Made by a program: the position numbers and the translations under genes. Shown in pieces: positions 13,923 through 61,546 of a stretch of 64,000 nt of DNA (position 1 is the stretch's first letter; every line of letters starts with the position of its first letter). The notes beneath the pieces are model-generated. The model searched no databases, was not told where the DNA came from, and saw nothing but the letters and a program-made list of their open reading frames with translations. Origin of the DNA: Tubiluchus corallicola (Eukaryota; Animalia; Priapulida); contig JAQGDQ010000008.1 in the NCBI GenBank assembly GCA_030141605.1, forward strand, positions 1,636,707-1,700,706, read 5' to 3'.

Positions 13923-14168
13923 AACATCGCTTAATGGAAAGGACGGTCTAAGTTTCGTTTTCTCTTTTAGTCATTCCATTGGGTAGTTGAACAAATTTTT
14001 CTATGTAACCAATCCGTGCAGTCTAATAGATGTTCGTGTTCGTGTAGATGTTCGTACATTTTATTTAGAGTTCTTGCTTCGCTATCTTTATTACACCATT
14101 GTTACGTAAATAACAGAGTGTTTTTTGTTTACAGTGTCAGTACTACTTTTAATAACAAGCTGTTCATC

Positions 14169-14714: not shown

Positions 14715-15082
14715 TTTGACGAATTTTGTTTTTTCTGCTGTTATGCAGTTATCTAAAAACATTCGTTTAATTTTTTTAGCTGTTTGTGTGTAAATTTTGT
14801 TTTTTAGTTAACTGTTAACTTTTTGATCGTTCAGTAATAATTATGAAAAGTAAACGTGTATTGCTTTAGCGATGAGTAGGTTAATGAAGACTTAATGGCT
14901 TCTCGTTATTACTCGTTATTTATTGCGCCCAACTGAATTACATTACAAAATCTGTTCATTGCATTGTGACCAACCGATTTTGTTATATTTTGAAATCTAA
15001 AATACAGGCTTTCTTGTTTAATTCAGCATATATTATTGGCATAATGCGATAATCAATTGATAGGGTTTAATGCTACTGTCGA

Positions 15083-15096
15083 TTGACCTTGGTAAC
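15083..15096. promoter_or_regulatory. Possible RFX X-box half-site upstream of EFCAB9
   Basis: TTGACCTTGGTAAC contains the strong RFX half-site CTTGGTAAC about 280 bp upstream of the ATG. Confidence 0.25.
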
Positions 15097-15375
15097 TCCT
15101 AAAACAGTAACTTGCAGGGAGGAAGTTCGGAGTCCGGAAATTGCATGGCCACAACAATTCAGTGAAGCCGTATCATGTGAAGAACGTACCACGTGATTTA
15201 AAAATAAAAAGACAATGCAATTTAAACAATATAGCAAATTTCGAATTCTGAAAACAAACAAAGTAAACCCAGATAGTCCTGATTCGTTGCAACAAAGGCT
15301 GCAATAGGAAAGTTTGTAATTCATGATAACTGCATTTTTAATCTGAAACTTCTATTTTTGCTCGCCAAAAAGAAA

Positions 15376-16107
15376 ATGATTGTGACATCGCCTACCTTGC
15401 AGTACTTGTCACTGGATGACAACTACAGTTTACTAACTTGTGTACAAGCTCGTGTTACTTTCGAACTTTTCTCATTGCTGGACGTTCATAACACGGGCAG
15501 CTTAAACGATGTCCAATTTTGCAGCTTTTTAAAACATGCCACCAACTTAACAAATTCTCAGATCTACAACACCTTTGACATGTTAGACGTAGATGCATCA
15601 GGATCCATAGATTTCAACGAATTTTGCCTGATTGTATGCATCTTAGTCGGAATTAAGGACAGGCAAGAAAAGCAGTTTATTTACCGCCATTCAGGTACAG
15701 TATTTGATCTGTTAGATGGTGATTGCAGTGGTACCGTATCTGCGGAGGAGTTTCGTTTATTCGGATTTCTGTTCAATATCGGCAGGAACACGGTAAGACA
15801 GATTTTCGAAGAGTATGACATATCCGGTGACCAGGAAATAGATTACGAGGAATTTAAACTGTTTGCAATGGCCTGCATAGACAAGCAGATCGAAATGCAA
15901 CAGAATATTGCCAGAAAGCTTCTCAAGAAAGAAGCCAAAGAAGAGTTTAGGCAGAGAAAGTATCGTCTTAAACAGCTGAAAAAGATGGAGCCCAGGTTGA
16001 AATTTGAAACAACCTACCTAGCTAAGAAACGAAACCGAGCTATTGAGTCAAACATGGAAAGGCTGGGATCGTCCGACTATACTGATTCTGATAGCGCGTT
16101 TGAGTAG
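15376..16107 (+). CDS. EFCAB9: EF-hand calcium-binding domain-containing protein 9 (CatSper Ca2+/pH sensor homologue), intronless CDS, 243 aa
   Basis: LQYLSLDDNYSLL, LLDVHNTGSLNDVQF, FDMLDVDASGSIDFNEF, KQFIYRHSGTVFDLLD, FGFLFNI and YDISGDQEIDYEEFKLF align by eye with mammalian EFCAB9 (LWYLYLDKIYCLL, LNDVLF, QFMYRHSRPVFDLLD, FLFNI, EFKLY); basic coiled C-terminal extension. Confidence 0.85.
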   Translation: MIVTSPTLQYLSLDDNYSLLTCVQARVTFELFSLLDVHNTGSLNDVQFCSFLKHATNLTNSQIYNTFDMLDVDASGSIDFNEFCLIVCILVGIKDRQEKQFIYRHSGTVFDLLDGDCSGTVSAEEFRLFGFLFNIGRNTVRQIFEEYDISGDQEIDYEEFKLFAMACIDKQIEMQQNIARKLLKKEAKEEFRQRKYRLKQLKKMEPRLKFETTYLAKKRNRAIESNMERLGSSDYTDSDSAFE

Positions 16108-29094: not shown

Positions 29095-30114
29095 TCAACT
29101 TTCTTCTCTCATTGCATCCCAGTTTAACTTGACCGGATCGTCGAGAAATTCCACGAACGAAGAGTTCCAAGATGTCAGCGGTTCAAAATCACATACACCC
29201 AGTGCCTCTTTCCCATTACTCTTATAATTCATTCCCTTTTCTCGTCTATTGCAAGCCAGTGTTCTATTCTCAGGTAAATTAGCGTACAGCGTATATAAGT
29301 TGTTCACTGCGAAATAATACATTATGTAAGAAGAAGGCATGGTCTTCATTTTTAAATGTCGCTTTGGCAACCAGGCATTTGTGATCAATCTTTGTCCAGA
29401 AATTTTTGGAACAAAAGTGTCATCTTTCATGACTGAGTACACCCAGTGCCGAAACTGCTTCCACTTTTCTGGAATAGGTGCTAGTCCCCAAGTGCCCACT
29501 TGGTGATACGCAAACACGTCTATGTCGCGGCACTCTTGACAGAGAGGGTTTCTGTGTCTTCCAGTACGCGAAATCAAAGTACCTCTCTGCAATGTTACAG
29601 CCCCAATGTCTGTTCTGTTATGATATCGCAAAAGTGTAGCTTTGAGCCAGATGTAGAAGTAAGGAGAGACTTCGAGATCGTCTTCCAAAATGAGCCCGTA
29701 CTCCCCTTCTACTTCAGAAGGTCTCCAGCAATCGTACCATTGCAAATATGGACCTTGATGAATAGGATGTACTATTGTTTTCTTTTCTCCGTATTTCCAC
29801 ACGAATGAGTTAATGACATCAAGCGTTTCCTGTGACACTGTACCATCTGTGGCGTCTCTATCTACACATATCTTCAGTCGAACTTCTTCATTGTTGTATT
29901 CGCTAGAACTAATAGATTTGAGTAGTCTCTTCAACGATTCTGGTCTGTTGTGCGTCAGCACAGCCAGCTCTAGCAGGAAAACCTCGTCGTCTGTTTCTTG
30001 GTTAACCCGCAAGACTAGAGAGATTATTAGATGTCTGATTATCAGAATAACACAAGTTATGCAGAAGACAGATTTTAGTCTGTCTTTCCAACGTTGTATA
30101 CGTAGTTTATGCAT
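29095..30114 (-). CDS. Type II membrane GT-A-fold glycosyltransferase (GT2-like), intronless, 339 aa
   Basis: Short basic N-terminus plus TM anchor (VFCITCVILIIRHLIISLVL); GT-A start LAVLTHNRPESLKRLLKSI; DXD-type motif GLILEDDLEVSPYFYIWL; later QVGTWG. Confidence 0.85.
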   Translation of the reverse strand: MHKLRIQRWKDRLKSVFCITCVILIIRHLIISLVLRVNQETDDEVFLLELAVLTHNRPESLKRLLKSISSSEYNNEEVRLKICVDRDATDGTVSQETLDVINSFVWKYGEKKTIVHPIHQGPYLQWYDCWRPSEVEGEYGLILEDDLEVSPYFYIWLKATLLRYHNRTDIGAVTLQRGTLISRTGRHRNPLCQECRDIDVFAYHQVGTWGLAPIPEKWKQFRHWVYSVMKDDTFVPKISGQRLITNAWLPKRHLKMKTMPSSYIMYYFAVNNLYTLYANLPENRTLACNRREKGMNYKSNGKEALGVCDFEPLTSWNSSFVEFLDDPVKLNWDAMREES

Positions 30115-32690: not shown

Positions 32691-35600
32691 ATGGAACGTC
32701 TTATTGTCTTTGCACTTCTTTTTGCTGGCGCACGGGGTAAGCAGTTTTCAGGTTACTAGTTCGTGGAAATTTTGCACACATAATTCTGAACAAAATGGCA
32801 GCTTTGAACAGTTGAGAATTATTAATCGAAGAATGTTGAAGGATGGTGATGGAATGTAAAATACGTATAACTTTCTAATAATCTAATGTGTGCTGGCTGT
32901 GCCAGTATTTAAAGATAATAGATGTAGAATTTGGCAATTGGGGGTTACATATCAGACAAGACGACTCCGTACAGCTATTTGCACATCTATTTCCAAAAAT
33001 TGTGTTTAAAATATGAAAATAAGACTAATAAGGTGGAAAGTATTAACGTTAGGTTATTTTTCCCAACAAATGTAAAATTTATATGTGCTCCATTTCTGGG
33101 GCAGTTCGTTCTTCTTCGTGCTGTTTAAACTTTCATTTCTGTCATTAATTAAGCGCCTATGATCACACAAAAGCTATGAAAATTATTTTGAGTGTAATTT
33201 TTAACAGAATTTTCACTACATTACCGTCGTCTAAAGTCTTTCATGCCCACTGCAATAAGAAGTTCGTATATATTTTTACAGCTTACTACCAAGAGTCAGC
33301 TTGTGCAGCAGTAGGTGGTAGATGTTCGTATGTGTCATATTGTCGGGGCACATCGTTGAGTGGCAAATGTCCGACACAGCCATATGACGTTAAGTGCTGC
33401 ACCGGAAGTAAGTTATTTTCCTATGTTTTGCACTCGCCGAGTTCTTAATATTCCTTTTACCTACAAAGTTTACCCGAGAAAGCGGATAGTTAACTAAATC
33501 CTTGTAATTTTGCATTCTCTAATGCTACCAATTCTGATCATTGTTACTGAGTAAATTTTTTGTACTTTGAAAGAAATGTCAAAATTTCTGTGTCAGCACC
33601 TTAATTTTTTGCTAACATTTTGCTTAACAGTTTGAAGTTGTTTTTTACAAAGCAACTGTAATTTCCGACAAGCATTGGTGGTCATTGACGTAGAAAATCT
33701 TCGTACAACGCAAATGCAAAAGAGAAGCAGAGCCGAGATACAACAACAACAACAACGACGACGACGATGACGAAGACGACAACGGCGGCGGCGACGACGA
33801 CGACGACAACAACAACAACAACAACAACTATAATGATAATAATAACTGCAAATTTATAATAGTATTAGGTCAATGTTTTAAAAAAGCTTATATATTTACA
33901 TTTATTACAACTGTTTAAAATTATGCTAGTTGAAATCCAAGCAAAAGACAAAATAATGATAAAAAATGCCAGTCTATTAAGGCGTACAATATTAATTTTT
34001 TTCAGTCTACCAGGAAGACAAGTGTTCTCGCATTGGCGGAACGTGCACAACTAGTTGTTTTGGTACAACACATAGTGGCTACTGTCCGACTCAGGGTAGC
34101 AATGTTCGATGCTGTGTGATCAATAGTGGTAAGAATTCAATGTTAATTTTTGCGTCATCACTATACTGCTTTTACAAGTTATTTATGCTATATCATTTTG
34201 TTTTCTTGTGGTTTAGAACTTCTTTCCCAGTAAAAGAGATAAAATTATCTATACAGCAACAGGTTTATTTTATCGTTTAATTTTAAGCTTTCTGCGCGAA
34301 TATAACTTTTTATGAAACTTTCTCTTTCTTGTCAACACTGGTACGTACGCTAGTGACATTACCATGAGCAATACACTTTAAAACTAGCTTCTGTTGCTGC
34401 TGAGGTTAGTAAAACGCCAATTATATTTTTATTTCTACCGCGCATTTAATCAGATCATAAATTTTATACTAATTATTGTTACATAGACTCATATTGTTAC
34501 AGATACTTGTGATGATCCTGTTGCTAAGGAGTATGCTTGCAAACTGTTCTCCATGCACGAACAAAACAAAGTGTTTCTGAAACCAAACCACTTCAATTCT
34601 GTTGCTAGGTACCTGTGACGACCCTGTCGCTAGGGACTATGCCTGCCTCCTAGTTTCAATGCACGATCAAGGCAGAGTTTACCTAAAACCAGATCATTTT
34701 GACCCACAAGGTAACAATCCATATGATGGTGCAGCAGTTCTTGACAACATCAAAGACACGTGCAACGGACTAGCAGTAAAGCGGTCCAGGTACATTTACC
34801 AACAGTATAAATTAACTTCTTATAGAATGTCTGTATTTGGGTAATCTTTGTCCTTTTGTTTGGAGACTTTATTTGAGCCCCAGTAATTATGGTAACATAT
34901 AATACTTGGTTGGTTTTTTGTTTTGTTTACTGTAGCTATTGCTGCTCTTCGGGCTGTTCCCCAGGTGGAAAGGTATGCCTGCAAGGCAAGATGGTGAGAA
35001 ATCTGTACAATTATGCAGACAGCTTCTGGAATACCCATTCTCAAGTTATGGAAGTGAGTGTAATTAGACTTATATTGAAAAGAAAGTGGATTATCATTTA
35101 GCGTGCAAGATGTTTATTCTTTTAAAATTGGCATGATTCTAAAGCACTGGTTAGCACGAACCCTATTTATACTTTTGTAATTTGAATGAACGACTTTGTG
35201 AAGTTACATTTTTTTGCTGGGTATTATAATATTTTTATTACTATGTAGATCATTGCCACTATAACAATCATTACAACGTTGACATGTTAAGCCTTTAAAA
35301 AAACAGTGAAGTGGATAACACAGTACTCATAACGCCTACAAATTTTTGTGTTGTTGCTTGCTTCATAGTCAAACGTAGCCCAAGAATGCAACTTTTAACA
35401 GGGTGCCTTAGTACTTGAGACTGTTCATTCAGTGCTTTGATGTAAGGAGTAGTAACACTGAGAATGACATACTTAAAATTTCGTTTTTTTATTTAGTAGT
35501 AGTTTACAAGAATTAATATACATATCACATGATTCAACGACTCATTTAATGATACGCTCTTATATAAATCAATTCGCTTCAATTCCAACAGGTTAACTCC

Positions 35601-35792
35601 TTGGCTGGTTCCTGTCACTCGACCACCTCTAAACACTACCGTGGGTCCACGTACGATGTACGCTGTACATATCCCATCAACCATTGCAAGGCTCTTGAGA
35701 ATCATTGTAGGAGTGAAGACCCTGTGGAGCTGTGTTACCCTGGTGGCCCTTGCTCTGGACACAATACCTGGGTGCACTGTGCTTTTGCTTAA
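32691..35792 (+). CDS. Secreted beta-defensin-module / M15-like Zn peptidase, paralog 1 (264 aa, 6 coding exons)
   Basis: Exons 32691-32736, 33282-33407, 34006-34128, 34609-34789, 34936-35053, 35592-35792 all have GT-AG boundaries and join in frame (795 nt). Product: MERLIVFALLFAGARA|YYQESACAAVGGRCSYVSYCRGTSLSGKCPTQPYDVKCCTGIYQEDKCSRIGGTCTTSCFGTTHSGYCPTQGSNVRCCVINSGTCDDPVARDYAC...NIKDTCNGLAVKRSSYCCSSGCSPGGKVCL...VNSLAGSCHSTTSKHYRGSTYDV...ELCYPGGPCSGHNTWVHCAFA. Exon sizes are identical in paralog 2. A competing acceptor at 34502 makes exon-4 usage uncertain. Confidence 0.85.
34503..34608 (+). other. Truncated original, or alternative, exon 4 of paralog 1
   Basis: After acceptor ttgttacag it encodes DTCDDPVAKEYACKLFSMHEQNKVFLKPNHFNSVA, a diverged homologue of the exon starting at 34609. 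Confidence 0.8.
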
Positions 35793-37010
35793 TCAAAGGC
35801 AGAGTTAGAGACATATTGCTAAACTTTTAGCATGTTAACAAGCCATATATCTCATGCTATTGCAGTATGTAATCTTTATGCTGTGCACATTTTTACTGTA
35901 TTTAAAAGTAATTGAAAATTACTGAAAATTAACAATGTTATTAGTTATTACTAGCAAAAACGTTTTTATCTTTTGTTTGTTGAAGTAAGGATGTTACAAC
36001 GCAGCCTTACTACAACTGCATAGCCATTAACTTATACAAATACTTTACTGTCATCACGGCATTACTATTATCACCATGTCGATTACTGCTGCCATCATAA
36101 TCATCATCATCATCATGATCATCATCATGGTCGTCATCATCATGATCATGATCATCGTCATCATCATAATTAATTTTGCTCTCATTAGTGCTACTGTTGC
36201 CACTACCGCCACCACACTCCTCGTCGCTATCACCCTCAGCACCCATTGTCATTACAATTATATCGATCTGCACACCTCGGCACCTAAAAGATGTCTGGAT
36301 ACATATGTTATAAAATTTATGGCACTAGTTTGGTTGAATAAAATCATCAGCGTGTTTTTAATAGATTGCTGACCATCACGGAGTGTGTCAGAAAAATTTA
36401 TTGTATTTCAATATTATGGGTTTTGTAAATTAAACACTAGCAGAATAAAAATTTATATGAACTGGCTATAAACGCTATAGTATTAATACTATTTTTTGGC
36501 GATATACACGAGCAACAAAGATTTTTGAATAGACAATTATAAAGTAGGTCTGCTGTTCAAGTTGCACGTGAGCTAGCATTGTACCTGTTATATGTACCTG
36601 TAACTTTGATTTAATAAAAGGTTTCTGCTGTATGCTACCAGTCAACGCTTCAACTCGGGTGGATATTCGAGATTATAAAGAGGTATGGTTTACTGTAGAT
36701 TGTGACCAGAGTTTTTCAGCGTTTATATGCTAGCCTGTAAACATGCTGAATAAGTTCCCTCACATGCGATTGCGTATAAAGTTCAGTATGCCCACATTCT
36801 TCATAAGCCCAATTTAGACATCTGGATATTATCAAATGTCCCACTTGAGTCGTGACTATGGTGTTTGTTTAACAAAATTGTCAAGGCGTTTTATCTAGTG
36901 ATTGTCGTAACAAGTCTGGCACACCACGTGATACAATTTTGTCAATCGGCCACTTTGCCTTAAATTTAAAATTCTCTGAGTCTGTTTGTTGGTACGCCTA
37001 GATTACCACG

Positions 37011-40000
37011 ATGAAACTTTTGGTGGCGTTTATGCTGCTTGTTGCTGGCACGCAAGGTAAGCGTTTTCCGCATTTAGCCACATTTGCATGATAAGTGCAC
37101 AAATACTCCATACCTAAGGTAATACTTTAAAAGTAAGCTTCAAAAGTAGTTGTCTGCAAATACTTAGAAACATTGCCTTTTTAACATTTGACCTTGCAAC
37201 AAAGATAAATGACTGTAACTAGTTAATTGTGAAATAAAGTTCATTGAAATGAGAAAATGTTCAGTGAAGATATCCTAAATTTGCCCAATGTGAAATAAAA
37301 CTCGTCCAGGTAAGAAAACAGACAGTAAAGATATCCTAAATTTGCCCAATGTGAAATAAAACTCATCCAGGTAAGAGAATGGACAATAAAGAAATTATCA
37401 CGACCTCTTTTCTCGATAGATTGATCGTATAGTTTATCTAGCCGTATCGAGTGATCATGAATTAATCGTATAGATTTTATGGATGTATTAGATTTTATAG
37501 ATTCGCTTCCCGTTTGCTATGAGGTGATTGATCGCTTTTCAGTCACCTGACTCCGAGGGCTTTAGTTCAGTCTATCAGGCAATGATGATGTCCTTCAAGA
37601 CTATCACTTCGACCTTGCATTGTGAGTGGAGGCCTATTTCCCTCAAGTTAACAAGCGTAGCTCCCGCAATTGAGCTTTCTTAAGTACAATGTGAATCTCT
37701 CAAGTTCGTATCTAGGATTTAGTGTTGCTTTACTGTGAACGCTCTTAATCATACAAGAACTTGTTATCTGCGTTACTACAGTGAACAGACTTTATTAGAT
37801 TACAAATTACATGTTATCTACTCTGGCTTTCTTTACACGATTTGTCCTTATATGCCGGTGGGCGCTTACAACTAGAGTATAGCTCCAGCGAAGATGCTAT
37901 TCACTTTAAGTACTCACAGTTCGATATGCTGCACTGAAGGTGGTTAATACAATGCGAATGCTACAGTTATACAGATTTAGACTCAGATACAAATAAGTTG
38001 AATTCATTTAACTTGTGGATTGACCAATGTACCCTTACACTTGGTCAAATCCTGATTGCTTATCGAGACCACGTCGCACCAGTGCTCAGTCTTGGCTGAG
38101 AACGTAGAATCCGATCCACGCTGGGCTAAAACGCTGCTTCTGTCATCTAGAAGTTTGTCTCGGACAGAACACGATGGCGGCAACCACTGTCAGACTCTCT
38201 CCTTCGTTGTGTAAATCTCTAGTATCTTACCAGAGCTTATATCTCTGAGAGCTGACCTTCGATGATATTGCACCGTATGGCACATCCAGCAACATCTGTG
38301 GCATCTGCTACCTCCCGTCAAGAGACTTCTGATTTTACAATCAGTAATGAGTTCTCTTGAATTCCATCGTCTTTTGAGACCTTCCTACCGTCGTCGGCAA
38401 ATCTTCAGATTTCTCTCTCTAATGTCACTGAGCACTGATAGAGACCTTGGCTGCTATCATAAAGTTACTTCTACGCGACATCTAAATCGCTCTAGAACCT
38501 CTCTTAATTAGTTCTAACTCTGCATGTATCCCTTTTGAGACAATAGTGGCTTTCTTAAACAAGACACTTGCATTTCTGTAACACGTGTGACAATTCTGTC
38601 GCATTAAATTCGTACTACCAGCTGGGTGAGTTTCTCTGTCAACCGTGTAAATTTATTTCATGAAATCAGGGAGGCGTGAGTTTATCAACTGAATCTAATT
38701 CAGCTGATAACTCTATTAATTATCTTCCAAAATACATATTCATAAATTTATTCATAGCAATATCCTAAATTTGCCCAATGTGAAATAAAGCTCGTCCACG
38801 TAAGAAAATGGACAGTAAAGATATCCTAAATTTGCCCAATGTGAAATAAAACTCGTCTAGGTAAGAAAATGGACAGTAAAGACATCCTAAATTTGCCCAT
38901 TGCGAAATAAAACTCGTCCTGGTAAGAAAATGGACAACAAAGATATAACCTACGTAAAGTTAATGTGCACATGAAATAAACTGAATAGAATAGATATTCT
39001 TGTGAAAGACTATAATATTCAATGTGCTTCACAGAACAGAACAATATGCTTTAATTTTGAAATTTTATTAATCTGTATTCATAACTTGTTGAATGGAGTA
39101 TGAATGCCGATATTTTAGTTTACAATCAAAGTATGTTAGCAATATCAGTGCCAGAATCTTACCAAGATCTGGTTTTATTGTAATTTTTTTTACAAAACAG
39201 CTCGAATTGTATGATTCAATATGGATGCTGATTACTGTAAAGAAAACTGGACAGAATGCTTTTGCTGCTGGTATACCTTGTATTGGAAAATATTATTTTT
39301 GCTCTTACAGCTTATTACCAGGAATCGGCTTGTGCAGCAGAAGGTGGCTGGTGCACTTACGAGTCCTACTGTCGTGGGTCGTCATTGACTGGTAGATGTC
39401 CTACTCAACCAAACGATGTGAAGTGTTGCACCGGAAGTAAGTAACAGTACTCTTTTGCCATCACTTTCAGGCCTTTGATTATTCGTGAATTGTCTTGATC
39501 ACGTACATTGGATACTTTAAGTCATATAAAACTCCCAGTGGAATGCTTACAGTATTTCTTAAATGATTGCAATTCGTTGTAAATTAAAATTATATTTTAG
39601 AATAGAAAAATAATTTTTTACTGATCTAAATTTGACTAAAAATTAAGCTTAATCTTCTTCTAAATTAAATTTGCAAGTTTATTTTTAGTCTATCAGGAGG
39701 ATGAATGTGCTCGTATTGGCGGCACGTGTTCGACTAGTTGTTCTGGTACAACACATAGTGGCTACTGTCCAACCCAGGCTAGCAATGTTCGATGCTGTGT
39801 GGTCAATAGTGGTATGAATTCAATGTTAATTTTTGCGTTATCACTATACTGCCTTTACAGGTTATTTATTTATATAATTTTGCTTACTTGTGGTTTAGAA
39901 CTTCTTTGCTAGTAAAAGAGATAGAATGATCCATACAGCGACACGTTTATTTTTATTTCATTTACTTAATTTTTAGCTCTATGCGCAAGCAAAACTTTCT

Positions 40001-42525
40001 ACGAAGTTATATGGAAAATTTTTGTGTTTTTACTTGGTCCTGTAGGTATGATACCATAGACCAAAAATGTTTTCAAACCACAATTTTTACTCGTTCTTAA
40101 GAAAGTTGGAAAATCTTTTTGGATTACAGACCTGATCAAGTTATATGCCATCTGACTAGTAATTTTTGCTTTAATTCACAATTCTGTTGCTAGGTACCTG
40201 TGACGACCCTGTCGCTAGGGACTATGCCTGCCTCCTAGTTTCAATGCACGATCAAGGCAGAGTTTACCTAAAACCAGATCATTTTGACCCACAAGGTAAC
40301 AATCCCTATGATGGCGCTGCAGTTTTGGATAACATTAAAGATACCTGTAATGGTTTAGCCGTAAAACGGTCCAGGTATATATTAGTTTTATCGGCTTAGA
40401 TTTGATTTTTTTAAAACTTAAATGGTAGACGAGTTGCTGTAGGTATGCTGCAAACCACTGCAATGTTAATCTTCTGAGTAATCAAGGCGTTGCGTATGAC
40501 AGTTTTGTATTATTTTTATTTGTATTATTTATTACTTTGTATCGTTATTATTTAAACAGTATATTATTTAGTATCTTTAGTCGTAGCAGAGCCGCGATTT
40601 AAAACAATCGATACAATTATCTAACCAGTAAAAATCGTACCCGTCTTCAGGTCTATTCAATGCCATTTTTAAGTAGAAAAATTATTTTAAAGATGTGGGC
40701 AATCATTTTAATGAAATCAGCTTTCTTTAGACCGGTTTTGAATAAACCGATTTGTATACGGCAAACTTGATCTGACGTTTCTATCAACATACTAACACGC
40801 ACCACAAAATGTTTAAAATTATGTGTTTAAACTGATGTTTTTCGTTATTATATTGTTACGAAACGGCATGGTTATTGATTCGCTGTGTCACAGCATAGCT
40901 GTGCAGAAAACGTCAAAATGTGTAAAATAAAGTGAAGATACAGATTATAGTAACTGCAAATAACTCGCTTGAGATCTGATCCATTGTCTTCGTTCTGACT
41001 TTCTTTACGGAACAGGTGCTGAGATGAAATGCGCACCTGTCGGCCCACTGAACAGACGAGGTCATTCGATAGCGACCGTTTTACACCTGGTATTCAGTAC
41101 CACTGTGTAATGGTTTCTTACTGACGAGTATCATCACAATGGAGGTCAAAAATAAATAGCTTTTCGCCCCCATATTAATAAATATTCTTTAGTATTTGTC
41201 CAACACATATTAATACTGGCCGAGAGTTTCAAACTAGGCCATGGAATAGTAGCTTTCTGCTGCAATTTTGCAGTTAGTATAAAACTTTTCTAAACTAGTC
41301 AACAAGTCTAAACGGCGAAATTATAACATCATGTTCTTGAAATAATATTGTCTTATAGGTAAACATGGTCGCTTTTGCTTTATTGATTTTTTTTTCATTG
41401 TTTTTACAATCAGCTATTGCTGTTCCGTTGGGTGTTCGCCTGGTGGACAGGTTTGTCTACAAGGCAAAATGGTGAGAAATCTGTACAACTACGCTTCTAA
41501 CTTCTGGAATTCTTACGGGCAGACTATGCAGGTAAGTACGGTCTTAGTTATGAAGAAAATTATCAAAAGTCTGGTAGTTCATGGTATTCTTAAACTGGCC
41601 ATAAAATTAGCATAAGAAATTCACATAGTTTTAACTGCGGTTAATAGTTCTAGATCTTAGACGAAAGCCTATGGTAGAAAAAATAATTTTTTTGAGACTT
41701 AAGTAGCGTTTACGTAGCATATGGATGCGGATGCGTTTTTGAGGGTGCGGAATAGATGAAATCTGTTTATATTGTTTTCAAAGCACCCATTTATGCAGCT
41801 GCGCATGCGTTGATTTTGATTGATTGATTTTTCTATTGATTGTCTATTGATTTTTTCAGCAGGCTGTTCCGCATGGAAAATGCTTCCGCATCAGCATCCG
41901 AATGCTACATAAACGCCGCTTTAAAATACTTTCTGACTTCTTTTGCTGTTAATATTGTACGATTCACAAGATTTGCCCCGTTTCCTATTTTACTTTCGAG
42001 TAGCAGCAGCTGTTTACTCCTGACATGTCGTGGTATATATACGTAATAGCAGATTCGTCGACGAATGACACGTTTGGTCTGTGTACTAAAACTTGATTTA
42101 TTTATCTGCAAAGCAAAAACAAAAAGAAACAGCCGCCCAGCTTCGAACCAGACGGCAAGATCATATTGCAGTTAACTTCCTTTCTATGTCCAGGTTATAT
42201 AACATGAAATTATTGTTGCAACAACCGTTGCCTTCGTTTCTTTTCGACATTAGTGAAGTCAAAGCAAACAAGAATTTTGATTTTGCTTTTACTGTCTACA
42301 ACAAATTTAACTTTATTCTACTAGGTTAACTCCTTGGCTGGTTCGTGTCACTCGACCACCTCCAAGCACTACCGTGGTACCACATATGACGTAGGCTGCA
42401 CATATCCCATCAACCATTGCAAGGCTCTTGAGAATCATTGTAGGAGTGAAGACCCTGTGGAGCTGTGTTACCCTGGCGGTCCTTGTTCAGGACACGATAC
42501 CTGGGTGCACTGTGCTTTCGCATAA
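37011..42525 (+). CDS. Secreted beta-defensin-module / M15-like Zn peptidase, paralog 2 (264 aa, 6 coding exons)
   Basis: Exons 37011-37056, 39311-39436, 39689-39811, 40194-40374, 41414-41531, 42325-42525; GT-AG, in frame, same sizes and phases as paralog 1. Signal peptide MKLLVAFMLLVAGTQA; motifs SKHYRGTTYD and GHDTWVH. Confidence 0.9.
37240..38945. repeat. ~60-bp minisatellite in intron 1 of paralog 2, split by an LTR insertion
   Basis: Unit aagatatcctaaatttgcccaatgtgaaataaaactcgtccaggtaagaaaatggacagta occurs at about 37240-37395 and resumes at 38760-38945. Confidence 0.9.
37396..38759 (-). mobile_element. Solo LTR (Gypsy-like, 1364 bp) with 4-bp TSD
   Basis: Ends TATCACGA...TCATAGCA (decayed TG...CA inverted termini), flanked by aaat/atat, which duplicates the ATAT of the interrupted minisatellite unit. 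Minus-strand TATA-like (~38240) and AATAAA (~37793); no long ORF. Confidence 0.7.
41702..41920. mobile_element. PIF/Harbinger(Tourist)-like MITE, same family as 56651-57085
   Basis: TIRs AGTAGCGTTTACGTAGCAT...ATGCTACATAAACGCCGCT; internal cggaatagatgaaatctgtttatattgtttt shared with the 56.9-kb copy. Confidence 0.7.
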
Positions 42526-44879: not shown

Positions 44880-47109
44880 TTAAACCTTTAAACTAGTCAG
44901 ACAAGCCAAAATTTTATCCCAGTACGCTTCGGTGTTGGGATTGTACCATCCGTTTGGTCCGCCATTGTGGATTCGAGAAAATTCGTGGCATGTTGGTGGG
45001 TATCCGATGATATTAATTGTGGCGTATCTGCTCATGTAGCCCTGCACTGTGCGCTCACTGCAGTCAAAAGTTGCTGTGCATGACTTCCAATCTGAAAGAT
45101 TTTGACAATGAAGAAAATTAATCCACACTGGGTGAGATACATTTTCTCAGTAAAAGATAAAATTCATGAGTAACAGCATTCTTCTTTGTTTGTTAGGTCT
45201 TTTTTCTCTCGAATCGACCCGATCATCTTAATCGCAGAGTGTACGCTCTTACTGTACTCCAAGTGCCAAAGACGGTTTGTTTGGAGCTAGTAAATGCATT
45301 GATGCCGAAGTGTTAATGTTATAATTAACAATCAGTTGCTGCATGAGAGGTGCTGCCACGATCTCAAATTTACTAACTGCTCCACTAGATTGCTATTGAA
45401 ACAGAATAACCTACTTCCTGTGTCCAGTTCTCGAGGCCACACATCATTTCACATTACTCTATCAATCTTCTTTTCAACTAGTATTCATTTACCAACTCCA
45501 TTTAAATATGTAAAATACTGAAATACGCAGTTTTGCCCAAGATTAATCATTAATTAGGTTTGTTAATTTTACCTTAAGTAATGAACAAACCTTGATTAAT
45601 GATTAATCTTGGGCAAGACTGTGTATTTCAGTGTTTTGCATATTTTAATAGAGCTTGTAAACGAATACTAATTGAAATGAAGATTAGCTTAAATACCTTA
45701 ATTGCCTTAATTTGAAATAAGGAGACATTGAAATATCTTCTTATTGCAAACGGTATTAAACGTTGTCTTTTATTAATTAAATTAATATATTTACTAAATT
45801 GTTCATTATCTGCTATCAGATTTTAGCACTTAGACAAAATGAAACAGCATAACGTTATTAATGTAAACTATCCTGGAAAACACTACTGACTCAGTGTAAT
45901 TATGTTTTAGTCTTTGATCTTTTAGAAAAATTAACGCGCTCGACCACCTGCTATCTTTTTAATGTTGTAATCGACAGACTGAAGTACCTTTATGGCAGAA
46001 AATCTTGTACCTAGAGACCCTACTTGCACCACGCTACTACGGCCCTCTCTTGGATTAGACCAAAACTAAATAATAAAATAGAATGTAACAAAAACCTAGA
46101 TACAATTTGGGTTTTTGCAACTAAGCGTGAGCAACTTGACTGATCAGATCCAACGTGACTTCCTTCTACATGTACACCAAAAAAGTTCTTGGGCTAAAAG
46201 TCGAAAGCTTGTCAAATCTGAAGGCTACAGATTACCTCCACCCAGTCGCCCACCATCAATCCAGTACGGTTCTTTGATTTGGTAAGGCCCACAAGACTCC
46301 GAGTAAACGTCCCATTTGCAGATGGGCTCAGGCATTACACAATTCGATTCCACGTAGCAAATACAGTACATGCAGTCGTCTGGCACCGGTCCAGGGGCTA
46401 AAAAGCAATAAAAATGGTGCCACTTTAAACAAACGTGAAGCAATTATTTTCGGTACATTAACATATATGTTGCCAAAATATTTCTTTCAGTGCTATACTA
46501 GGCCTAACACAAAGTAATTAAAGTAATTTAAACCACGCAAAATGCAGATGAAATGGAACTTTATTGATGTTGTGAACAATTTTTCGAGACGCTGTCTGAT
46601 TAATAAGTTCCAGTTAGCAACATCAATAAATTTCTATTTTATCTGTATTTTATTTTTGTTTATATTGCTTTTCGTCGTTTTAATGAAGAATGTAATAGCA
46701 CTCAGAACAATTTATTTGTGTGTTTGAACTGTTTACAAACGTAAAATCCTGTCACCGGCCGTGATCAATCGTTATTTAAATTTGAAGACTTGCTAGCTGT
46801 CAAAACAATAGAAGCCTACTAGTTTGTGGCAATGATCTACTAAAATAGATAAAGCACTGAAATTCACTTTTGTAATATAGTTTCTGATTTTTCGGTTGCA
46901 ATTATATTTTATATATTTTAATAGATGTCTCAATACTGGTCATACTTTCAAATTAGATACCGGAAACTGCTAAATATTGAAAAATAAATAATTGTTTGTT
47001 GCAACGTGTCTGATTTCATCAGACATTTAGTTTGTGGTAACTTGAAGTTTTTTCTCTTACCTGCTGAGCACAAAGCTACGAAAGCTAAACACAACACAAC
47101 ATGCAACAT
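44880..47109 (-). CDS. Invertebrate-type (i-type/destabilase) lysozyme, 140 aa, 3 exons
   Basis: Exons 47109-47061, 46397-46236, 45091-44880 join in frame (423 nt). Signal peptide MLHVVLCLAFVALCSA; CMYCICYVES (catalytic Glu), WDVYSESCGPYQIKEPYWID (catalytic Asp), DWKSC, YMSRYA, RIHNGGPNG. Confidence 0.95.
45463..45686. repeat. Hairpin/palindrome (~105-bp arms, ~13-nt loop) in lysozyme intron 2
   Basis: aatcttcttttcaactagtattc...gcccaagattaatcattaattaggtttgtt pairs with aacaaaccttgattaatgattaatcttgggc...gaatactaattgaaatgaagatt. Confidence 0.88.
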
Positions 47110-51660: not shown

Positions 51661-52596
51661 CCATGCGTAATGTAATTATATTTTTGTTAATTTAGACAAA
51701 ATTTCAATTTGTAAATTGAAAGCATTGTTTCACATTGCAAAATCGCAGTTTCAAACGGCATTTCAATTCAAGAGTCAATTTTCGTGACCAAAGGTTTACG
51801 CGCTGAAACAAGGAAGAGCGTAAGGGAAATCAGTTTAATGCTATGAACCCGAAATTGCTTCTATTATCGTTGGTCCACTCGTAATACCGTCACCGAAATA
51901 CCGTGAAATTGTTTCCAATGAAGAGGGCAAATTTACGAAAAGGGTGTCGGAAGCTACTTACAAAATTAAAAATATATGAAAAAATCAATGATTTCGTTGA
52001 CGTTAGAACAAATTCTACGCCTCTCTGTTTTCCACTTCAACCAGATGCAGTTTTTAGCCTAATTCGCCGTAGGTGGATGGTTCTAATCTAAGTTATGACG
52101 CGTTGCGTCAACTTGCCCCCACCCTCGTTCATCCTGGCATTGACAAATAGGCCCATAACAATTTTGGTAGTGGCGATAACTTCTAAACCCGCTGACGCAT
52201 TACTTAAGACGTGCAAAACTCACAGTCGACATGCTAAAGCACTTTTCCCTGCGTTTGCTAGAAAGAGAAAGCTAATATAAAGACGTAGAAAGCAAAATGC
52301 TGAATTATTATAGTTTCATACTCAAATGACGCTTAATTGTTATGTTTATAGTTAATTATTTTTTACAATTATTAACAATTAACTGTTATAGTGAAATACA
52401 TCAACCAGAACCTTTACTCTACGAAGTTATTAAATTTTGTGTCGTAGGGTGTTGCTATGATATGCCAAGACAGTGTTTTTAATCATTTTATGAACTAATA
52501 ACGTGTCCGAAACGCCCTTTTATTGCCATGGAAAACTGTGTCAAATTTCACTTTGATTAGTGAATTTGTACTGCAGGTGAATTTGTGCCAACCGTA

Positions 52597-54531
52597 ATGC
52601 TGAGAAAGCTGCAAAAGCATCAAGGTGAAACAGAGAGAAACCGGGAGCTGCCGGGACGGCGAAGGTTCGAGTTGGAATTCATCGGATCTCGTCCCATGGT
52701 GAACTCAGCCCGTGCACTGTCAGCTATTCAGGCTCACCTGAGAGAACTCTACGTTCAGTATGTGCAGCAGCAGGGTCCTAGAGTGCCCATGTACAGACGC
52801 ATCATTGTCTCAGATTCAGGAATGAAAATGATATATAGAGATGCCAATGGCGACGTACGAGAAATGTATAATTCTATTACTACAGTCTCATTCGCTGCCG
52901 CTGTCAGGTTTACCTGTCGTACAGAAAGAGGAATGAAAATTATCGGCGCTTTCGAGGCTTTGGGGAAAGAGACGCCACCAGATTGTGAGATTGACGATCT
53001 GGGGATTTTTGAAGTGCTAGATAAACGTTTTAGTAAATTTCCAGAATACAATCACCCGGCGATGTTTGTGTGCATTATGAGACGAACAGATAGACATAAA
53101 CTCTTGGATTGCTATGGATTTGTATGCTGCAGAGACAGCGACGCAGTTAACATTGTAGGTGTTCTTGCACATGCGCAAAAGCAATACAAGAGCGGTGTGG
53201 TCGAAAGAATGTTGCAAGAGACTAGAGCGATGTTCAAAGAGAAAAAGTCTAAAGAACCAAATAAACAAGAGAGCCCAGCGGTGGTAGTTTTTCCAAAAAT
53301 GAATGATCAAGCTGATAGTGCGCAAATAAAACGGGTTGATTTTTTGACCATAGAGAAAACAAAAAAGGTGAAGAGACAAATTAAACCGGAAAATATGTTT
53401 AACACTAAGTCTTGTTATAGATTTCCAAAACATGAAACTGGGCAATTCTGGAAGTCAATGAGTGACTACCAACAAAGCGCGATTCAGCAAATAAAGCAGG
53501 AAAGAGCTACGGGAAAATCAACACAAGAAAGACAACGTTGTCCATCTCGACAAATGGCTTCTGCGAGTCCCCCTTCTGATGATAAAATCTACACAGCAAT
53601 GGCAAAAACGTGCAACAAAGCTGTGCAGACTATTGATGATAATGACTCTAGTTGGTGTCAAAGCCACACCCATAAAGAAAATGCAATGTCCGTAAGAACA
53701 TTAACAAGTGATAGCTTGCAGGTTTCAAAACAATTCTATAGACGTACGTATCTACCGGGAAACGAGGGAGAAAAGGACACCTATCAAGCGTACGAAATAG
53801 GCACATTTTTCTCTCCAAATGCCAGTAAGAATTCGTTGCCCCGAACAACTGGCGTCGCTGAGATTGACTACACGACTAATAAAAAAGTTCCAACAGGTGG
53901 CGTGAAGGTATATCCGTTCTTTGATCCTTCGGAAATTAACCAACACTTCAAGCGGGCCGCGTCGCATGCGAGCACAAGCGATGCAGATGCAGAGGAGACG
54001 TTTGCTGCGGAGTTGAACAGCAAGAAGAAAAAGAAAAAGAGAAAAGCTCCTTTGGCTCCGTCCAACATCGTTGACAAGAGCATCCAACAAGCGTTAACAC
54101 TGCTCATGCGCGGCAAGGAAAACAAGAAAGAGAATGTCCACTATAGTCCAGTGAATCTATGTAATTGGTCTTACTCATCAAGAAAAGACCAGCTTGACAG
54201 CCTGGATCAGGTTGTAGGAAGAAAAAATGAAAAAATCAAGTACAGAGAAACGACAGAGGAAGCAGAAATACTGTCAGTGTCTACAAATTCTTCACTACAC
54301 GAAAATCAGAATCCTAAAAGCAACAAAGCAAGGCGAAGCTTATTTTCTCCGCCATACAAGCGTGCTCCTTTTCAGCAGGTTATACCTGATGTGACAGTAG
54401 CCAATGAAGAAGAAATGGAGGCGGTGACAGAAACCATTCTTGAGACAGGATGCCTCAGTGACAGCAGTAAGAGTTCTAGAGGCAGTTTTTCCGGTGTTCC
54501 GTTCCACGGTGCGCTTGGCTACATGCCGTAA
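52597..54531 (+). CDS. PTB/PID-domain-containing adaptor-like protein with a long low-complexity C-terminus
   Basis: Open frame of about 645 codons. FELEFIGS, IIVSDSGMKM and HPAMFVCIMRRTDRHKLLDCYGFVCCRDSDAVNIVGVLAHAQ fit a PTB fold; ends LGYMP. An acceptor at 52576 means an upstream coding exon is possible. Confidence 0.75.
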   Translation: MLRKLQKHQGETERNRELPGRRRFELEFIGSRPMVNSARALSAIQAHLRELYVQYVQQQGPRVPMYRRIIVSDSGMKMIYRDANGDVREMYNSITTVSFAAAVRFTCRTERGMKIIGAFEALGKETPPDCEIDDLGIFEVLDKRFSKFPEYNHPAMFVCIMRRTDRHKLLDCYGFVCCRDSDAVNIVGVLAHAQKQYKSGVVERMLQETRAMFKEKKSKEPNKQESPAVVVFPKMNDQADSAQIKRVDFLTIEKTKKVKRQIKPENMFNTKSCYRFPKHETGQFWKSMSDYQQSAIQQIKQERATGKSTQERQRCPSRQMASASPPSDDKIYTAMAKTCNKAVQTIDDNDSSWCQSHTHKENAMSVRTLTSDSLQVSKQFYRRTYLPGNEGEKDTYQAYEIGTFFSPNASKNSLPRTTGVAEIDYTTNKKVPTGGVKVYPFFDPSEINQHFKRAASHASTSDADAEETFAAELNSKKKKKKRKAPLAPSNIVDKSIQQALTLLMRGKENKKENVHYSPVNLCNWSYSSRKDQLDSLDQVVGRKNEKIKYRETTEEAEILSVSTNSSLHENQNPKSNKARRSLFSPPYKRAPFQQVIPDVTVANEEEMEAVTETILETGCLSDSSKSSRGSFSGVPFHGALGYMP

Positions 54532-55863
54532 TTGAAGGGACTGTGCTGCTGTGTTGACCATTGTCATGACGCTCGGTGAACCAGAAAAATGTATCTACGG
54601 ACTACGATTTTAATATCGTAATTACGATTAATTGCGCGATAACAATTGCGTGAAATTAACGATTATTTCAGATGAAATTCGAAGTTTTTGCTGCCTGGTA
54701 AATACGCATTTTTAGCAAGGCACTTTTATCTAATATAAGCAACAGTCACCACTGTAACCGCGTAGTAAATACGTAGTAAATACTTGATTGTTTAAAAAAA
54801 AATTTAAACAGAATAATTAATATCTGGAATCAATTCCCAGATTCTGTCAGGTGCCCCAACTAGCAATGAATTTTGATAATCTTCTCTGTAATATATGGCA
54901 ATCAATGCGATGCGATTTTTCTCTTGTCTGCCGATTATCCGAGGATCGTTAATCATCCACTTCATTGTTTCGTGTATCATATCATTCCATCGTCCTTTCC
55001 CAACTAATTCTCGCCATTCTTTTTCTTTGCACATGTTTTTCTTCTTGTCACTGGCTGGTATAATTTTAGTTTCATCAAAAACTTACATACATATACGCAA
55101 GAGGCTTTTATCTAGGTTGCTGTTAGCTGTTAGCTGTTAGCTGATCACTTAGTACAGTTCTATAATTATACTTGATCATGTATGTATCCATTCTAATCAT
55201 TGTTGTACTGATAAATACAGTTTAAACCAGCAGTGCCTTGGTCTGTGCTCAGAGTAGCAAAATCTTTAAAAAAAGGTTTATAAGATGTAAATATTATCAA
55301 TCATTTATCTTTTAGCAGGCACCTGAAAGTAGCCTTGTTTCTTTGTGCTTTTATCTCTTATGTTTTAATTCGCTCTTTTTATCAGAAAACTTATTCTGTG
55401 CTGCATAGTTTTATCCTGCTTTCATAGTCTATACTTTTTGTGAATATTATTAATATTTGTAATAAGGATCGCACATTAAATTAATAAGTGAATGAAAGAC
55501 GATTAAGTAGGGCCTGCTGTTGTGCCAAGGTGCAGGTGAGCCCAAATTATTTTTGCTCGATTTTTATGCACATTTCAAATAGCTAAATACAAAATTATTA
55601 TAAAAATTAATGTAATCAAATAAAAACGTAGCTTTCTAGGTACTGCCATTTTATGCCAAAATATGATTACGTTTTTGTGGTAATTACTTTCAACTGTAGC
55701 ATTACATTTACAGTTGCTTTCAACTGATGATTTTATATTTACTAACTAACTAATTCAAATTGTATATACTGATTATTGTTTTATACATATTTCTGGTGTT
55801 ACTCATTATCTATATCCACTTACCTCATATCACTTATTTCGCATATTAATGCAATATATATGC

Positions 55864-55908
<45 letters not shown>

Positions 55909-56372
55909 CAGTCTAATAAATAATTATATGCGTATAATTAATATTAATTTTTAATTATAGGATTATGAATAATAGCTCTTAATATAAAAACATAGCATTT
56001 TTATGCATTTTACTGATGTTCAATCGTATTTTTATGACTAAATGTTAAAAGCATTTTGTAAAAATGACAAAATTATGCTAAAACTAATAAAACACGAAAT
56101 TTCATTACCAGTTACAGTGTAACCAGTTTTTTTTTATTTTCTCAACGCGAGATGGCAGCACAATTAACTATGAATGGCTTCAGCAAAGACTTGCTCTCGC
56201 TTTCGGTTCAGTTCGCGTGTTATGGCTTCCGCAATGCCTTTAGTGAAAGAAAATCTGTCGGCTTAATGCATTATTTAAGAACTAACCTAAATCAGATGAA
56301 CAAATGAGCTTACATTTTTCGACAGTATTAAAACACAGAATGTTAAGTGTTGTTGGACCTTCATACAGCTGA

Positions 56373-57812
56373 ATGATAGGACCAACGCTAGTCTTCGGTT
56401 CAGCCGTGTTCTGGTGCGGGACGTACAGGCTAGTGAACAAATGTTGCAGTAATTGTTCAGCAGAATGGAATTGCCGACTGGTTACTGTGTTACACGCCAC
56501 CATTGCCGTCAGTCTCTCTGCTTGGTGCTGCTTCATAGAAGGACCTTGGCCGTTCTTACATCCAGGTATGTGTTTTCAACAAAATACAGAAATGGCTATC
56601 TCACATATGAAGATAATGAGAGTAATAGAAGGCGTGTTGAAGCTGCATAAAGTGGCGTTTATATAGCATCCGGAATGCGTAATACTGTCGAATAAAAAAT
56701 CACCCTGTAAAAACTCACTTGGCTATGGCAAAAACTTTCTTAAAAATATGCAAAGGGCTTAATATGAGGAATGAAAATGTTGGTAACCTGGAGCATATAA
56801 ATTTACGCTACACCAAACAAGAATGTGTCAAATTTCAAGGCTCCCAATGGAGGCGTAGAATATAGGAACCAACTAGATGGCATATATCACTATTTCACAT
56901 ATATCTCATGTATGATACGGAATAGATAAAACTGGTTTATATTGTTTTGGTCAATGCGCCCTTTATTAGACCAGCGTCGTGCGTTATTTTTTCTGCAGTG
57001 ACTTCCTATTGATTGATATTTCGCTGCCATTCCGCATTCCGCCTTCCGCTGCCATTCGCATTCCGGATGCTACATAAACGCCACTTTAGTAATACAAACA
57101 CATAATACAAAAGACGTACACTCTCTGTGTTTATACAGAAGCTTTACAATCATCTAGAGAAAGATCATAGGCTACATTTTGCTTTAGTTAATAAATATAA
57201 AGCAGTAAGCGTTAATAATGTGTTACCCTCGACTGTACAACAATTTTAAGCAGTTAATGTAATAATGCGTTGCCCACGAATGTACAACAATTTTAAGCAG
57301 TTAATGTAATAATTCATTTCATTTCCCACGACTGTACAACAATTTTAAGCAGTTAATGTAGCAATACGTTGACCATGACTGCACAACAATTTTAAGCAGT
57401 TAATGTAACAATACGTTACCCACGACTATATAACAATTTTTAGGAGTTAATGTAATAATACGTTACCCACGACTATACAACAATTTTAAGCAGTTAATAG
57501 TAATATACTACCCACGACTATACAACAATTTCAAGCAGTTAATGCAATAATACGTTACCCACTACTATACAACAATTTTAAGCAGTTAATGTAATAATAC
57601 GTTACCCATGACTGTACAACAATTTTTCTTTTTTAGGGTCACCAAACACGAGGCTGCAAGTGGTCACTCTATGTAATTGTATTGGATATTTTTTGTTTGA
57701 CTTTGTCTGGTGCCTTTACATGAACACAGAAGGTATTCGAAGTTCTTCCACTCATTCTGTCGTTTGTTCTTTCAATCGCTCATTCATTCGTTCGTTCGTT
57801 CGTTCGTTCGTT

Positions 57813-57843
<31 letters not shown>

Positions 57844-57871
57844 TCGTTCATTCATTCATTCATTCATTCAT

Positions 57872-57967
<96 letters not shown>

Positions 57968-59220
57968 TCGTTTGTTTATTCAGTGTTTTTCTTATTTCAT
58001 TTTTTTACAAAAGTTTAAATATATATTTTAAATAAATTATTTTTAACCAGTTTGTCTCTTACTTTCGCAATTTAGATAGTAATTAAGTTTTATCTTTTGT
58101 ACTATTTTTCTGTAGGTGTATTTGCTTTTGCTAACAGCGCTTATAAACTATAAGTTATAATTTATTGTAAGTTATAAGTTATAACACTATAATTTTTTGT
58201 GAAGAATTTTCCACGTATACCTGTATAATGTCAATACATATAACATTTGAGTTATATCATTTCTGATGCAATACTATTCATTTGAAGAAATTGCTTTGTT
58301 TATCATGTGAAAGGGGAAAAATGGCGTTCGTAACGCTTTAATTGACACTCTGTGGCACCGACCATTATAGGCAACTCATAGACTATAAGGTTTTTATACA
58401 TTGTATATAGTCAGCAAAACAGCAAAATTATGAAGAAAAATTTTATATACAAAATAGCTGACATGTTGTTCCCAAAAATGTGAGCTCTTATATTAGGCTG
58501 TATAGACTGTGACTTATGAGCTGCATTTAAAAATGTACAAACACGTCAGTAATTTTTGTAAATTATAAATTTCTTTTCGTGATAAATTTTATAAAACTTT
58601 TATAAAAAAAATCCAGCGTTTCTACTGCTAGCTACCAGTCTTCATTGGGAAATATATAAAAATTTTAAAAAAATTATTATTTATTGGGTTGTTTATGAAA
58701 CGGTTATTGTACTTGTTATAAAGAATTTAAAAACTCTTCTTTCCATGAATTTGTCGAGTATGCAACAGAACTGGTCTTCAATGTAACTACAACTTTTGTT
58801 CATTTTTCAGGACCAATAATGTTACTACATCATTTAGTCAGCATCTTTGGATTATCCTGGTGCATCTACATCGATGTTTCAGCAATAGAGGTAACTGCTA
58901 CAATATTCGGTGCAGAGCTAACTAACCCTCTACTTCAACTACGCTGGTTTCTACGGGCAACCGGACGCAAAGGATCAATCTTATACGAAATTAATGACTT
59001 TGTCTTTCTTTGTAGTTTTGCCGCCTTGCGCACAGGTGTTGGCACAAAGCTTTTGATTGCACACCTGCAACATCCGAAGCCATACATGTCTGTGAAAATG
59101 GGCGGAGTTGTGATTTATACCATTTCTTGGATTTTCATGGTTAACATTGCCGTCTATGCCTACGGGAAATACATAAATATGTTCAAAAAAATTGTTGGTC
59201 CAAGATTATCAGATCTTTAG
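56373..59220 (+). CDS. TLCD5: TLC domain-containing protein 5 (TMEM136), 232 aa, 3 exons
   Basis: Exons 56373-56565, 57637-57732, 58811-59220 join in frame (699 nt). EWNCRLVTVLH, GPWPFLHPGSPNTRLQV, GYFLFDFVWC, MLLHH and FGAELTNPLLQLRWFLR match TMEM136. Confidence 0.92.
56651..57085. mobile_element. PIF/Harbinger(Tourist)-like MITE in TLCD5 intron 1
   Basis: TIRs AGTGGCGTTTATATAGCATCCGGAATGCG...CGCATTCCGGATGCTACATAAACGCCACT, flanked by TAA/TTA. Confidence 0.75.
57207..57626. repeat. 47-bp minisatellite (~9 copies) abutting the TLCD5 exon-2 acceptor
   Basis: Unit gactatacaacaattttaagcagttaatgtaataatacgttacccac; mirrored at ~61776-62195. Confidence 0.92.
57780..57968. repeat. (TTCG)/(TTCA)/(TTTC)n compound microsatellite
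   Basis: Visible arrays; coincides with the inverted-duplication breakpoint. Confidence 0.95.
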
Positions 59221-61445: not shown

Positions 61446-61446
61446 A

Positions 61447-61522
<76 letters not shown>

Positions 61523-61546
61523 ATGAATGAATGAATGAATGAACGA

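Follow-up and report, generated by a model that had tools for sequence, protein, structure and literature searches.

A tandem gene pair predicted to encode secreted M15A-like zinc peptidases behind two cysteine modules

The gene pair and its products

Two tandem genes, here called A and B, lie on the forward strand of a 64,000-nucleotide stretch of contig JAQGDQ010000008.1 from Tubiluchus corallicola (the window). They probably encode secreted LAS/M15A-like zinc peptidases that would cut peptide bonds of peptidoglycan, and the enzymes would probably work with lysozyme in the digestion of bacteria or in the defence against them. The support comes from the fold, a profile match to the zinc D-Ala-D-Ala carboxypeptidase of Streptomyces albus G (PDB 1LBU), the conservation of the metal ligands, the fusion of a relative with one lysozyme and the vicinity of another, and the ratio of nonsynonymous to synonymous substitution rates (dN/dS). 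Spliceosomal introns, the neighbouring i-type lysozyme gene and the nearest named relatives would on their own make an invertebrate animal the likely host. The exons are as follows.

32691..32736, plus strand: gene A exon 1, start codon and predicted signal peptide (hydrophobic N-terminus, judged by eye)
33282..33407, plus strand: gene A exon 2, cysteine module 1 (C-x6-C-x5-C-x8-C-x8-CC), bridged to exon 3 by a contig of run X2
34006..34128, plus strand: gene A exon 3, cysteine module 2 (C-x6-C-x3-C-x8-C-x8-CC)
34609..34789, plus strand: gene A exon 4 with the downstream acceptor, beginning of the peptidase domain
34936..35053, plus strand: gene A exon 5
35592..35792, plus strand: gene A exon 6 with H207, H213, D220, H255, W258, H260 and the stop codon
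37011..37056, plus strand: gene B exon 1, start codon and predicted signal peptide
39311..39436, plus strand: gene B exon 2, cysteine module 1
39689..39811, plus strand: gene B exon 3, cysteine module 2 (Pfam Meleagrin match at E 0.54 only)
40194..40374, plus strand: gene B exon 4
41414..41531, plus strand: gene B exon 5
42325..42525, plus strand: gene B exon 6, zinc-site residues and stop codon

Both gene models of the initial annotation, two tandem genes spliced to proteins of 264 amino acids, hold, and the cysteine spacings are as claimed there. Each gene has six exons, of the same lengths in both (46, 126, 123, 181, 118 and 201 bases); all ten introns are of the GT-AG type, and their phases (1, 1, 1, 2, 0) agree. 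The products are identical at 231 of 265 positions, and either contains 26 cysteines, six in each of the two modules and 14 in the peptidase domain. The pair is under purifying selection: dN is 0.072, dS 0.78 and dN/dS 0.09 overall, with 0.07 in the modules and likewise 0.07 in the peptidase domain. P0006, an independent protein of 264 amino acids from a 1242-base Logan contig, has its cysteines at the same 26 positions and shares 215/264 and 213/264 residues (about 81%) with the two window proteins. In run X2, which is RNA by guess only, a contig of a copy diverged by about 10% joins position 33407 exactly to 34006, which links exons 2 and 3; the loose ends of this contig look like exons 1 and 5. 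A further run, X1, is perhaps the source sample and is not independent of the window. A Pfam match of exon 5 to Hikeshi-like_C was below the cut-off and was rejected.

The introns of gene B contain repeats. In intron 1, 61-base tandem repeats (37228-37395 and 38760-38946) flank a stretch of 1.4 kb, probably a transposon insertion, for which run X1 has a much higher coverage. Intron 5 carries, at 41700-41910, a short high-copy element with opposite-strand joints that resembles a miniature inverted-repeat transposable element.

Peptidase fold and putative zinc site

The structure models are those of P0006. AlphaFold is confident across most of residues 100-264. Foldseek put the Hedgehog domain IhhN on top with the first model (E 5e-3; 1LBU, E 9e-3) and found 1LBU at E 7e-3 with the second. 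In two VIA searches the top 10 and the top 11 rows were all LAS-fold proteins, among them ShhN (Z 7.7, root-mean-square deviation (rmsd) 3.5, 115 residues aligned), 1LBU (Z 7.3, rmsd 3.4, 109 aligned) and VldE (Z 6.6, range 6.6-6.9, rmsd 2.5, 82 aligned). By sequence, family profiles match 1LBU at E 1.4e-4 and 2.7e-5 over only the last 55-65 residues, with the ligands in register; read off these alignments, H154, D161, H192 and H197 of 1LBU correspond to H213, D220, H255 and H260. Peptidase_M15_3 of Pfam matched 15 of 29 relatives weakly (best E 1.2e-4), none of them above the curated cut-off. The phmmer searches of P0006 and of a WxH-rich profile, A3, against the PDB gave no match at E 10. 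In the ESM Atlas, clusters without a name appeared at 0.94; M15_3 and HH_signal came no higher than 0.88. The modelled domain shows the Hedgehog/DD-peptidase fold (LAS or clan MD, M15A-like). Fold searches and profile alignment agree on what had been proposed at the outset, a LAS/M15 fold with H-x6-D and a distal histidine, and the S. albus G motif given there is the one printed in the 1LBU alignment.

The likeness to 1LBU is one of fold, and 1LBU is the best PDB sequence match of the family profiles. There are differences as well: H195 of 1LBU is a tryptophan here, His207 stands where 1LBU has none, the domain has about 50 extra N-terminal residues and 14 cysteines, and cysteine modules precede it.

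The residues of the presumed site are strongly conserved. Among 146 rows, chosen by profile match and leaving out 38 of 145 representatives as partial, H207, H213 and H260 are found in all 146, D220 in 145 and H255 in 133. H213, D220 and H260 would converge on one zinc and bind it. H255 lies five residues before the distal ligand, as do H192 of 1LBU and H370 of VldE, and would activate water; in VldE the histidine at this place is the proposed base (PMC11667670). H207 would stack on W258, replacing the H135/H181 pair of Sonic hedgehog (Shh), and hold the transition state, and R157 may bind the carboxylate of the substrate. The bond cut is perhaps D-Ala-D-Xaa, at a pentapeptide end or in a cross-link, which is our tentative choice; L-Ala-D-Glu is possible to a lesser degree, and some other bond is not very likely.

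Could the domain be a Hedgehog-like ligand, or act on host matrix instead of peptidoglycan? ShhN and IhhN rank first or level in the fold searches, the H-x6-D motif and the upstream histidine (H135) are in register, and the segment H-S-x-x-S-x-H-Y-x-G-x-x-x-D is closer to Hedgehog than to 1LBU. Identity to Hedgehog, however, is only 14-19%; along the entire domain, bacterial proteins linked to peptidoglycan reach 28-38%. A Glu of the E177 type is missing at its place, the distal loop is of the 1LBU type, and lysozymes are fused or linked to members of the family. There is no Hint/Hog domain, the stop codon following directly on the peptidase domain. Pfam scans of the window proteins, P0006 and the relatives gave no HH_signal match. 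A Hedgehog-like role is therefore very improbable.

Both genes read W258-V-H260, with Trp instead of His two residues before the distal ligand, while H-x-H at this place defines the LAS motif (PMC6027127). By their sequences both window proteins fall outside the strict definition; of the zinc motif initially proposed, the three ligands stand, and H-x-H is not intact. In Shh, H135 and H181 stack on each other, and either may be Tyr in M15A peptidases (PMC8052667), so that a stack of H207 on W258 would be a plausible substitute. WxH marks a derived clade in which activity is not assured. P0130, a protein of 557 amino acids with a eukaryote-like signal peptide, has Trp at the same site; its long branch adjoins the WxH clade, which it may extend beyond animals.

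A number of observations weigh against the peptidase reading. His occupies the first position of H-x-H in 129 of the 146 rows and Trp in 16, including both window proteins. The corresponding exchange in VldE, H373A, abolishes activity (PMC11667670). A conserved counterpart of the oxyanion Arg of VldE is not seen in columns 195-206 of the 146 rows. The Pfam match of exon 6 to Peptidase_M15_3 (14.7 bits, E 0.035) is below the curated cut-off of 23.2 bits, and P0006 has no Pfam match at all. The models are those of a protein 81% identical to the window proteins, not of these themselves; no Foldseek match reaches E ≤0.001, VIA Z stays below 8 and Hedgehog is level with 1LBU. The trees discussed below are unrooted and were built from the best 150 of 695 matches of an animal-derived profile, which biases them to animal-like sequences. 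The linkage to a lysozyme gene is seen in this window only. Finally, the activity is a predicted one for every member of the family, bacterial or animal.

Some of these points could mean that catalysis is lost or much reduced in the WxH clade, its members being secreted proteins that bind peptidoglycan for recognition or scavenging, while the H-x-H relatives stay enzymes. The His-to-Trp exchange in the whole clade, the inactive VldE mutant, the long stem branch of the WxH rows (1.3 changes per column in the 39-row tree) and extra cysteine pairs around the loops of the site would fit this view. Against it, both window proteins, like the clade as a whole, retain the three ligands, H207 and H255. 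Residues of this kind usually decay once catalysis is lost. Moreover, Tyr is tolerated at the H-x-H position in M15A enzymes (PMC8052667). We regard a loss of catalysis as unlikely and keep to the zinc peptidase as the better explanation.

With the MT3 domain of VldE/Spr1875, an L-Ala-D-Glu endopeptidase, the fold and the catalytic histidine five residues before the distal ligand are shared, whereas identity is 13-14%, and H373 and D372, which VldE needs, and R294, which it uses, are not conserved here (PMC11667670).

Relatives, origin and the cysteine modules

The family is large. HMMER yielded 695 clusters at E 0.001 and 342 at 1e-10, and the animal members range over crustaceans, a priapulid, molluscs, echinoderms and hemichordates. 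Those with names are Daphnia, Artemia, Darwinula, Notodromas and Priapulus; Ptychodera, Saccoglossus, several echinoderms and Ostrea; Patiria, Saccostrea, Crassostrea, Mercenaria and Biomphalaria; and Patella, Lottia and Dreissena. They are at present annotated as 'uncharacterized' or automatically named 'lysozyme 3'.

The link to peptidoglycan, also part of the initial annotation, is borne out by close bacterial relatives that carry peptidoglycan-binding or lytic domains. A tblastn search with the Priapulus domain found 24 plasmid records at 28-38% identity, 16 of them S. clavuligerus copies. Eight plasmid-encoded relatives were scanned: PG_binding_1 is present in four, one of which also has GH25, and GH46 in two. 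Amidase or L,D-transpeptidase genes are neighbours at four of nine bacterial loci. Among 100 relatives, hand-picked as the longer ones of 145 new representatives, 34 have a peptidoglycan-binding or -cleaving domain (PG_binding_1 in 27), nine another family, and 57 no Pfam match, as against 43 with one. P0025 combines EGF domains, cysteine modules, the WxH domain and a goose-type lysozyme (E 1.7e-41) in one reading frame. Pattern scans of GTDB with animal-specific words gave no relative, these scans being insensitive (plasmid tblastn and HMMER did find bacterial ones), and an equally negative tblastn search of phages was insensitive, too.

Some domain combinations may be mentioned in their own right. 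P0009, P0024 and P0025, from ENA contigs of 1.5-2.2 Mb, are long proteins with EGF domains, many cysteine modules and a WxH peptidase. In P0108, P0117, P0147 and P0192 the peptidase domain is fused to a T4SS_pilin-like part, in one of them also to SLT.

In the tree of 39 rows, one branch sets off the bacterial rows (100/97) and another the WxH rows (100/99). In a quick tree of 146 rows, one branch (SH-aLRT 98) separates all 27 animal-labelled rows, i.e., 24 named ones, P0006 and the two window genes, from 42 bacterial or peptidoglycan-domain rows. Since protostomes and deuterostomes are both found on the animal side, a single old origin is the simplest explanation, and one acquisition before the two lineages split is likely. 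The bacterial side is spread over four phyla, which suggests that the transfer went from bacteria to animals. Of the bacterial origin and domestication first proposed, the bacterial relatives are confirmed; a local domestication is not, the family being old and widespread, and the direction is one we infer from unrooted trees. A separate origin of the WxH rows from a Herpetosiphon-like donor was rejected with p-AU 0.024 in a test of one alternative only, picked after the tree had been seen.

The initial annotation knew of no characterised animal enzyme with this architecture. The layout has in fact been described, though not assayed. Rusticalin, a sea-squirt protein (Daugavet et al. 2019, PMC6339383; 2020, PMC7379824), and its relatives consist of a signal peptide, two beta-defensin-like cysteine repeats and a clan MD domain; they were put forward as peptidases of the cell wall with a phage or bacterial ancestry, the function being a predicted one (PMC6339383, 2019). 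Are the window genes simply divergent rusticalin-like members of one common origin? The layout, the clan MD domain, the proposed bacterial origin, a similar length (248-271 amino acids against 264 here) and the five introns, two of them in the peptidase domain, are shared (PMC6339383), and a table in PMC7379824 lists a Trichoplax protein with two repeats and Peptidase_M15_3. Yet the tunicate and amphioxus entries are listed there with M15_4, and the rusticalin-like domain is described as Ply500-like. Here, M15_4 matched one of 29 family members (E 0.13), as compared with the weak M15_3 matches, and the distal loop G-H-x-x-[HW]-x-H resembles 1LBU. Ply500 (2VO9) is not among the matches of the family profiles in the PDB at E 10. 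In PMC6339383, homologues were found only in tunicates, amphioxus, coral and placozoans, and no tunicate or amphioxus name occurs among the named matches of the present family. With M15_3 instead of M15_4, 1LBU instead of Ply500, and other phyla, the family is likely a second lineage, parallel to the rusticalin-like proteins and set apart from them by the descriptions; a common origin is rather unlikely. The Trichoplax M15_3 protein and three Lingula proteins with a Hedgehog/DD-peptidase domain, which have two repeats each in the same table (PMC7379824), may belong to the present family.

The layout is thus in print, whereas the subfamily and its Trp site seem to be undescribed; no account of either came up in a search outside which most subscription papers lie. 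M15 is not mentioned in the accessible passages of PMC11083476, and an arthropod chimera paper (PMC13389597) gave no match in its text passages or in 12 of its 15 supplements.

Each cysteine module is encoded by a single exon with phase-1 boundaries on both sides, as one would expect if it had been shuffled, and both show the defensin-like spacing of six cysteines ending in CC. Their Pfam matches reach only E 0.54 and 0.11. The whole-protein structure and profile searches, in which the peptidase domain filled the lists and the modules were not searched alone, contained no defensin or tick-inhibitor row, and the ESM Atlas had no usable match for the modules. In the first P0006 model their pLDDT is below 50; the second predicts a helix and short strands per module at pLDDT of about 60-77, compatible with a defensin-like fold. 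The modules are not strongly cationic, unlike antimicrobial defensins: the net charge of both together (83 residues) is +2.7 in A and -2.3 in B. The idea that the enzyme is joined to free antimicrobial defensins, which perforate membranes to admit it, was proposed for rusticalin (PMC6339383) and agrees with the spacing and the second model. Apart from the charge, it is opposed by relatives that replace the modules by SH3-like or somatomedin-B-like parts (weak Pfam matches) and by the placozoan PLys, in which the cysteine repeats make the enzyme more stable and less active and are removed as it matures (PMC12855814). We consider free defensins quite improbable. Of the beta-defensin-like modules first annotated, the spacing stands; the antimicrobial role is doubtful.

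In fungi and invertebrates, repeats of this kind are reported at the front of numerous wall hydrolases (PMC7379824). The spacing in the window is close, not identical, to that of rusticalin (Cx6Cx6-7Cx8Cx7CC), and the window modules would be the same repeat as the published ones. PLys, the one experimentally tested case that was found, likewise has N-terminal cysteine repeats on a bacterial-type wall hydrolase, although its catalytic domain is a GH23 glycosidase and not a zinc peptidase (PMC12855814). The modules are probably a pro-part that stabilises or regulates the enzyme, or else a part that binds the wall, and not a membrane-lytic defensin.

Against peptidoglycan, animals are known to use mainly lysozymes and amidases. 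A more far-reaching view, which we put forward tentatively, is that bilaterian invertebrates possess an ancient and so far unrecognised class of secreted zinc peptidases for peptidoglycan, acquired from bacteria in an event separate from that of rusticalin, that its WxH clade (the window pair with Daphnia, Artemia, ostracods and Priapulus) might work on a rebuilt site with Trp in place of the canonical H-x-H histidine, and that the Hedgehog-like zinc motif of the family could be an assayable model of the disputed peptidase chemistry of Hedgehog. If so, a further arm of wall digestion would stand beside lysozymes and PGRP amidases, and a missing activity would be added to invertebrate digestion and immunity, with Daphnia, Artemia, oysters, limpets, sea urchins and acorn worms as tractable models. 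The WxH site would widen the definition of the LAS motif. The surprise is tempered by the rusticalin-like proteins, for which the layout and the idea of a transfer had already been published.

Exon 4 of gene A and the rest of the window

Gene A requires a comment on its exon 4, where a patch of gene B and a competing acceptor meet.

34503..34598, plus strand: gene A's own, interrupted exon-4 start, with a competing acceptor AG at 34501-34502
34594..34720, plus strand: 127-base tract identical to gene B 40179-40305 (acceptor and start of exon 4)

Outside the identical tract, the remainder of exon 4 differs between A and B at 14 sites. Gene A's own exon start, which sits directly upstream of the tract, resembles the corresponding part of P0006. 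If the upstream AG is used, translation stops after 136 amino acids and the product lacks the zinc site; the 264-residue reading of gene A therefore depends on the downstream acceptor. The jump from A to B-like sequence occurs at a short word common to the exon of A and the intron of B. The right junction, from the tract to A-specific sequence, is contained in one X1 contig with zero differences, and no X1 contig spans the left one. An out-of-register conversion is the preferred explanation; a misassembly, i.e., a false join, is possible and less favoured. Gene B is free of this caveat.

The neighbouring lysozyme gene runs on the opposite strand, tail to tail with the pair.

44880..47109, minus strand: i-type lysozyme gene of three exons (47109-47061, 46397-46236, 45091-44880)

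It ends 2.4 kb downstream of the pair and looks intact. The product has a signal peptide, matches Pfam Destabilase at E 3.4e-12 and solved lysozymes at E 2.6e-10 to 3.4e-9, and its Glu and Asp align with those of the solved i-type enzymes.

Elsewhere in the window, an inverted duplication of 2.57 kb with 99.5% identity (55402-57973 and 61428-64000, reaching the window end) surrounds a TLC-domain gene; it is either a recent duplication or an assembly artefact. An open frame of 655 codons without a Pfam match extends over 52564-54528 on the plus strand. Single-exon frames resembling Tctex-1, EF-hand and glycosyltransferase-2 proteins lie at 13971-16104 and 29098-30114.

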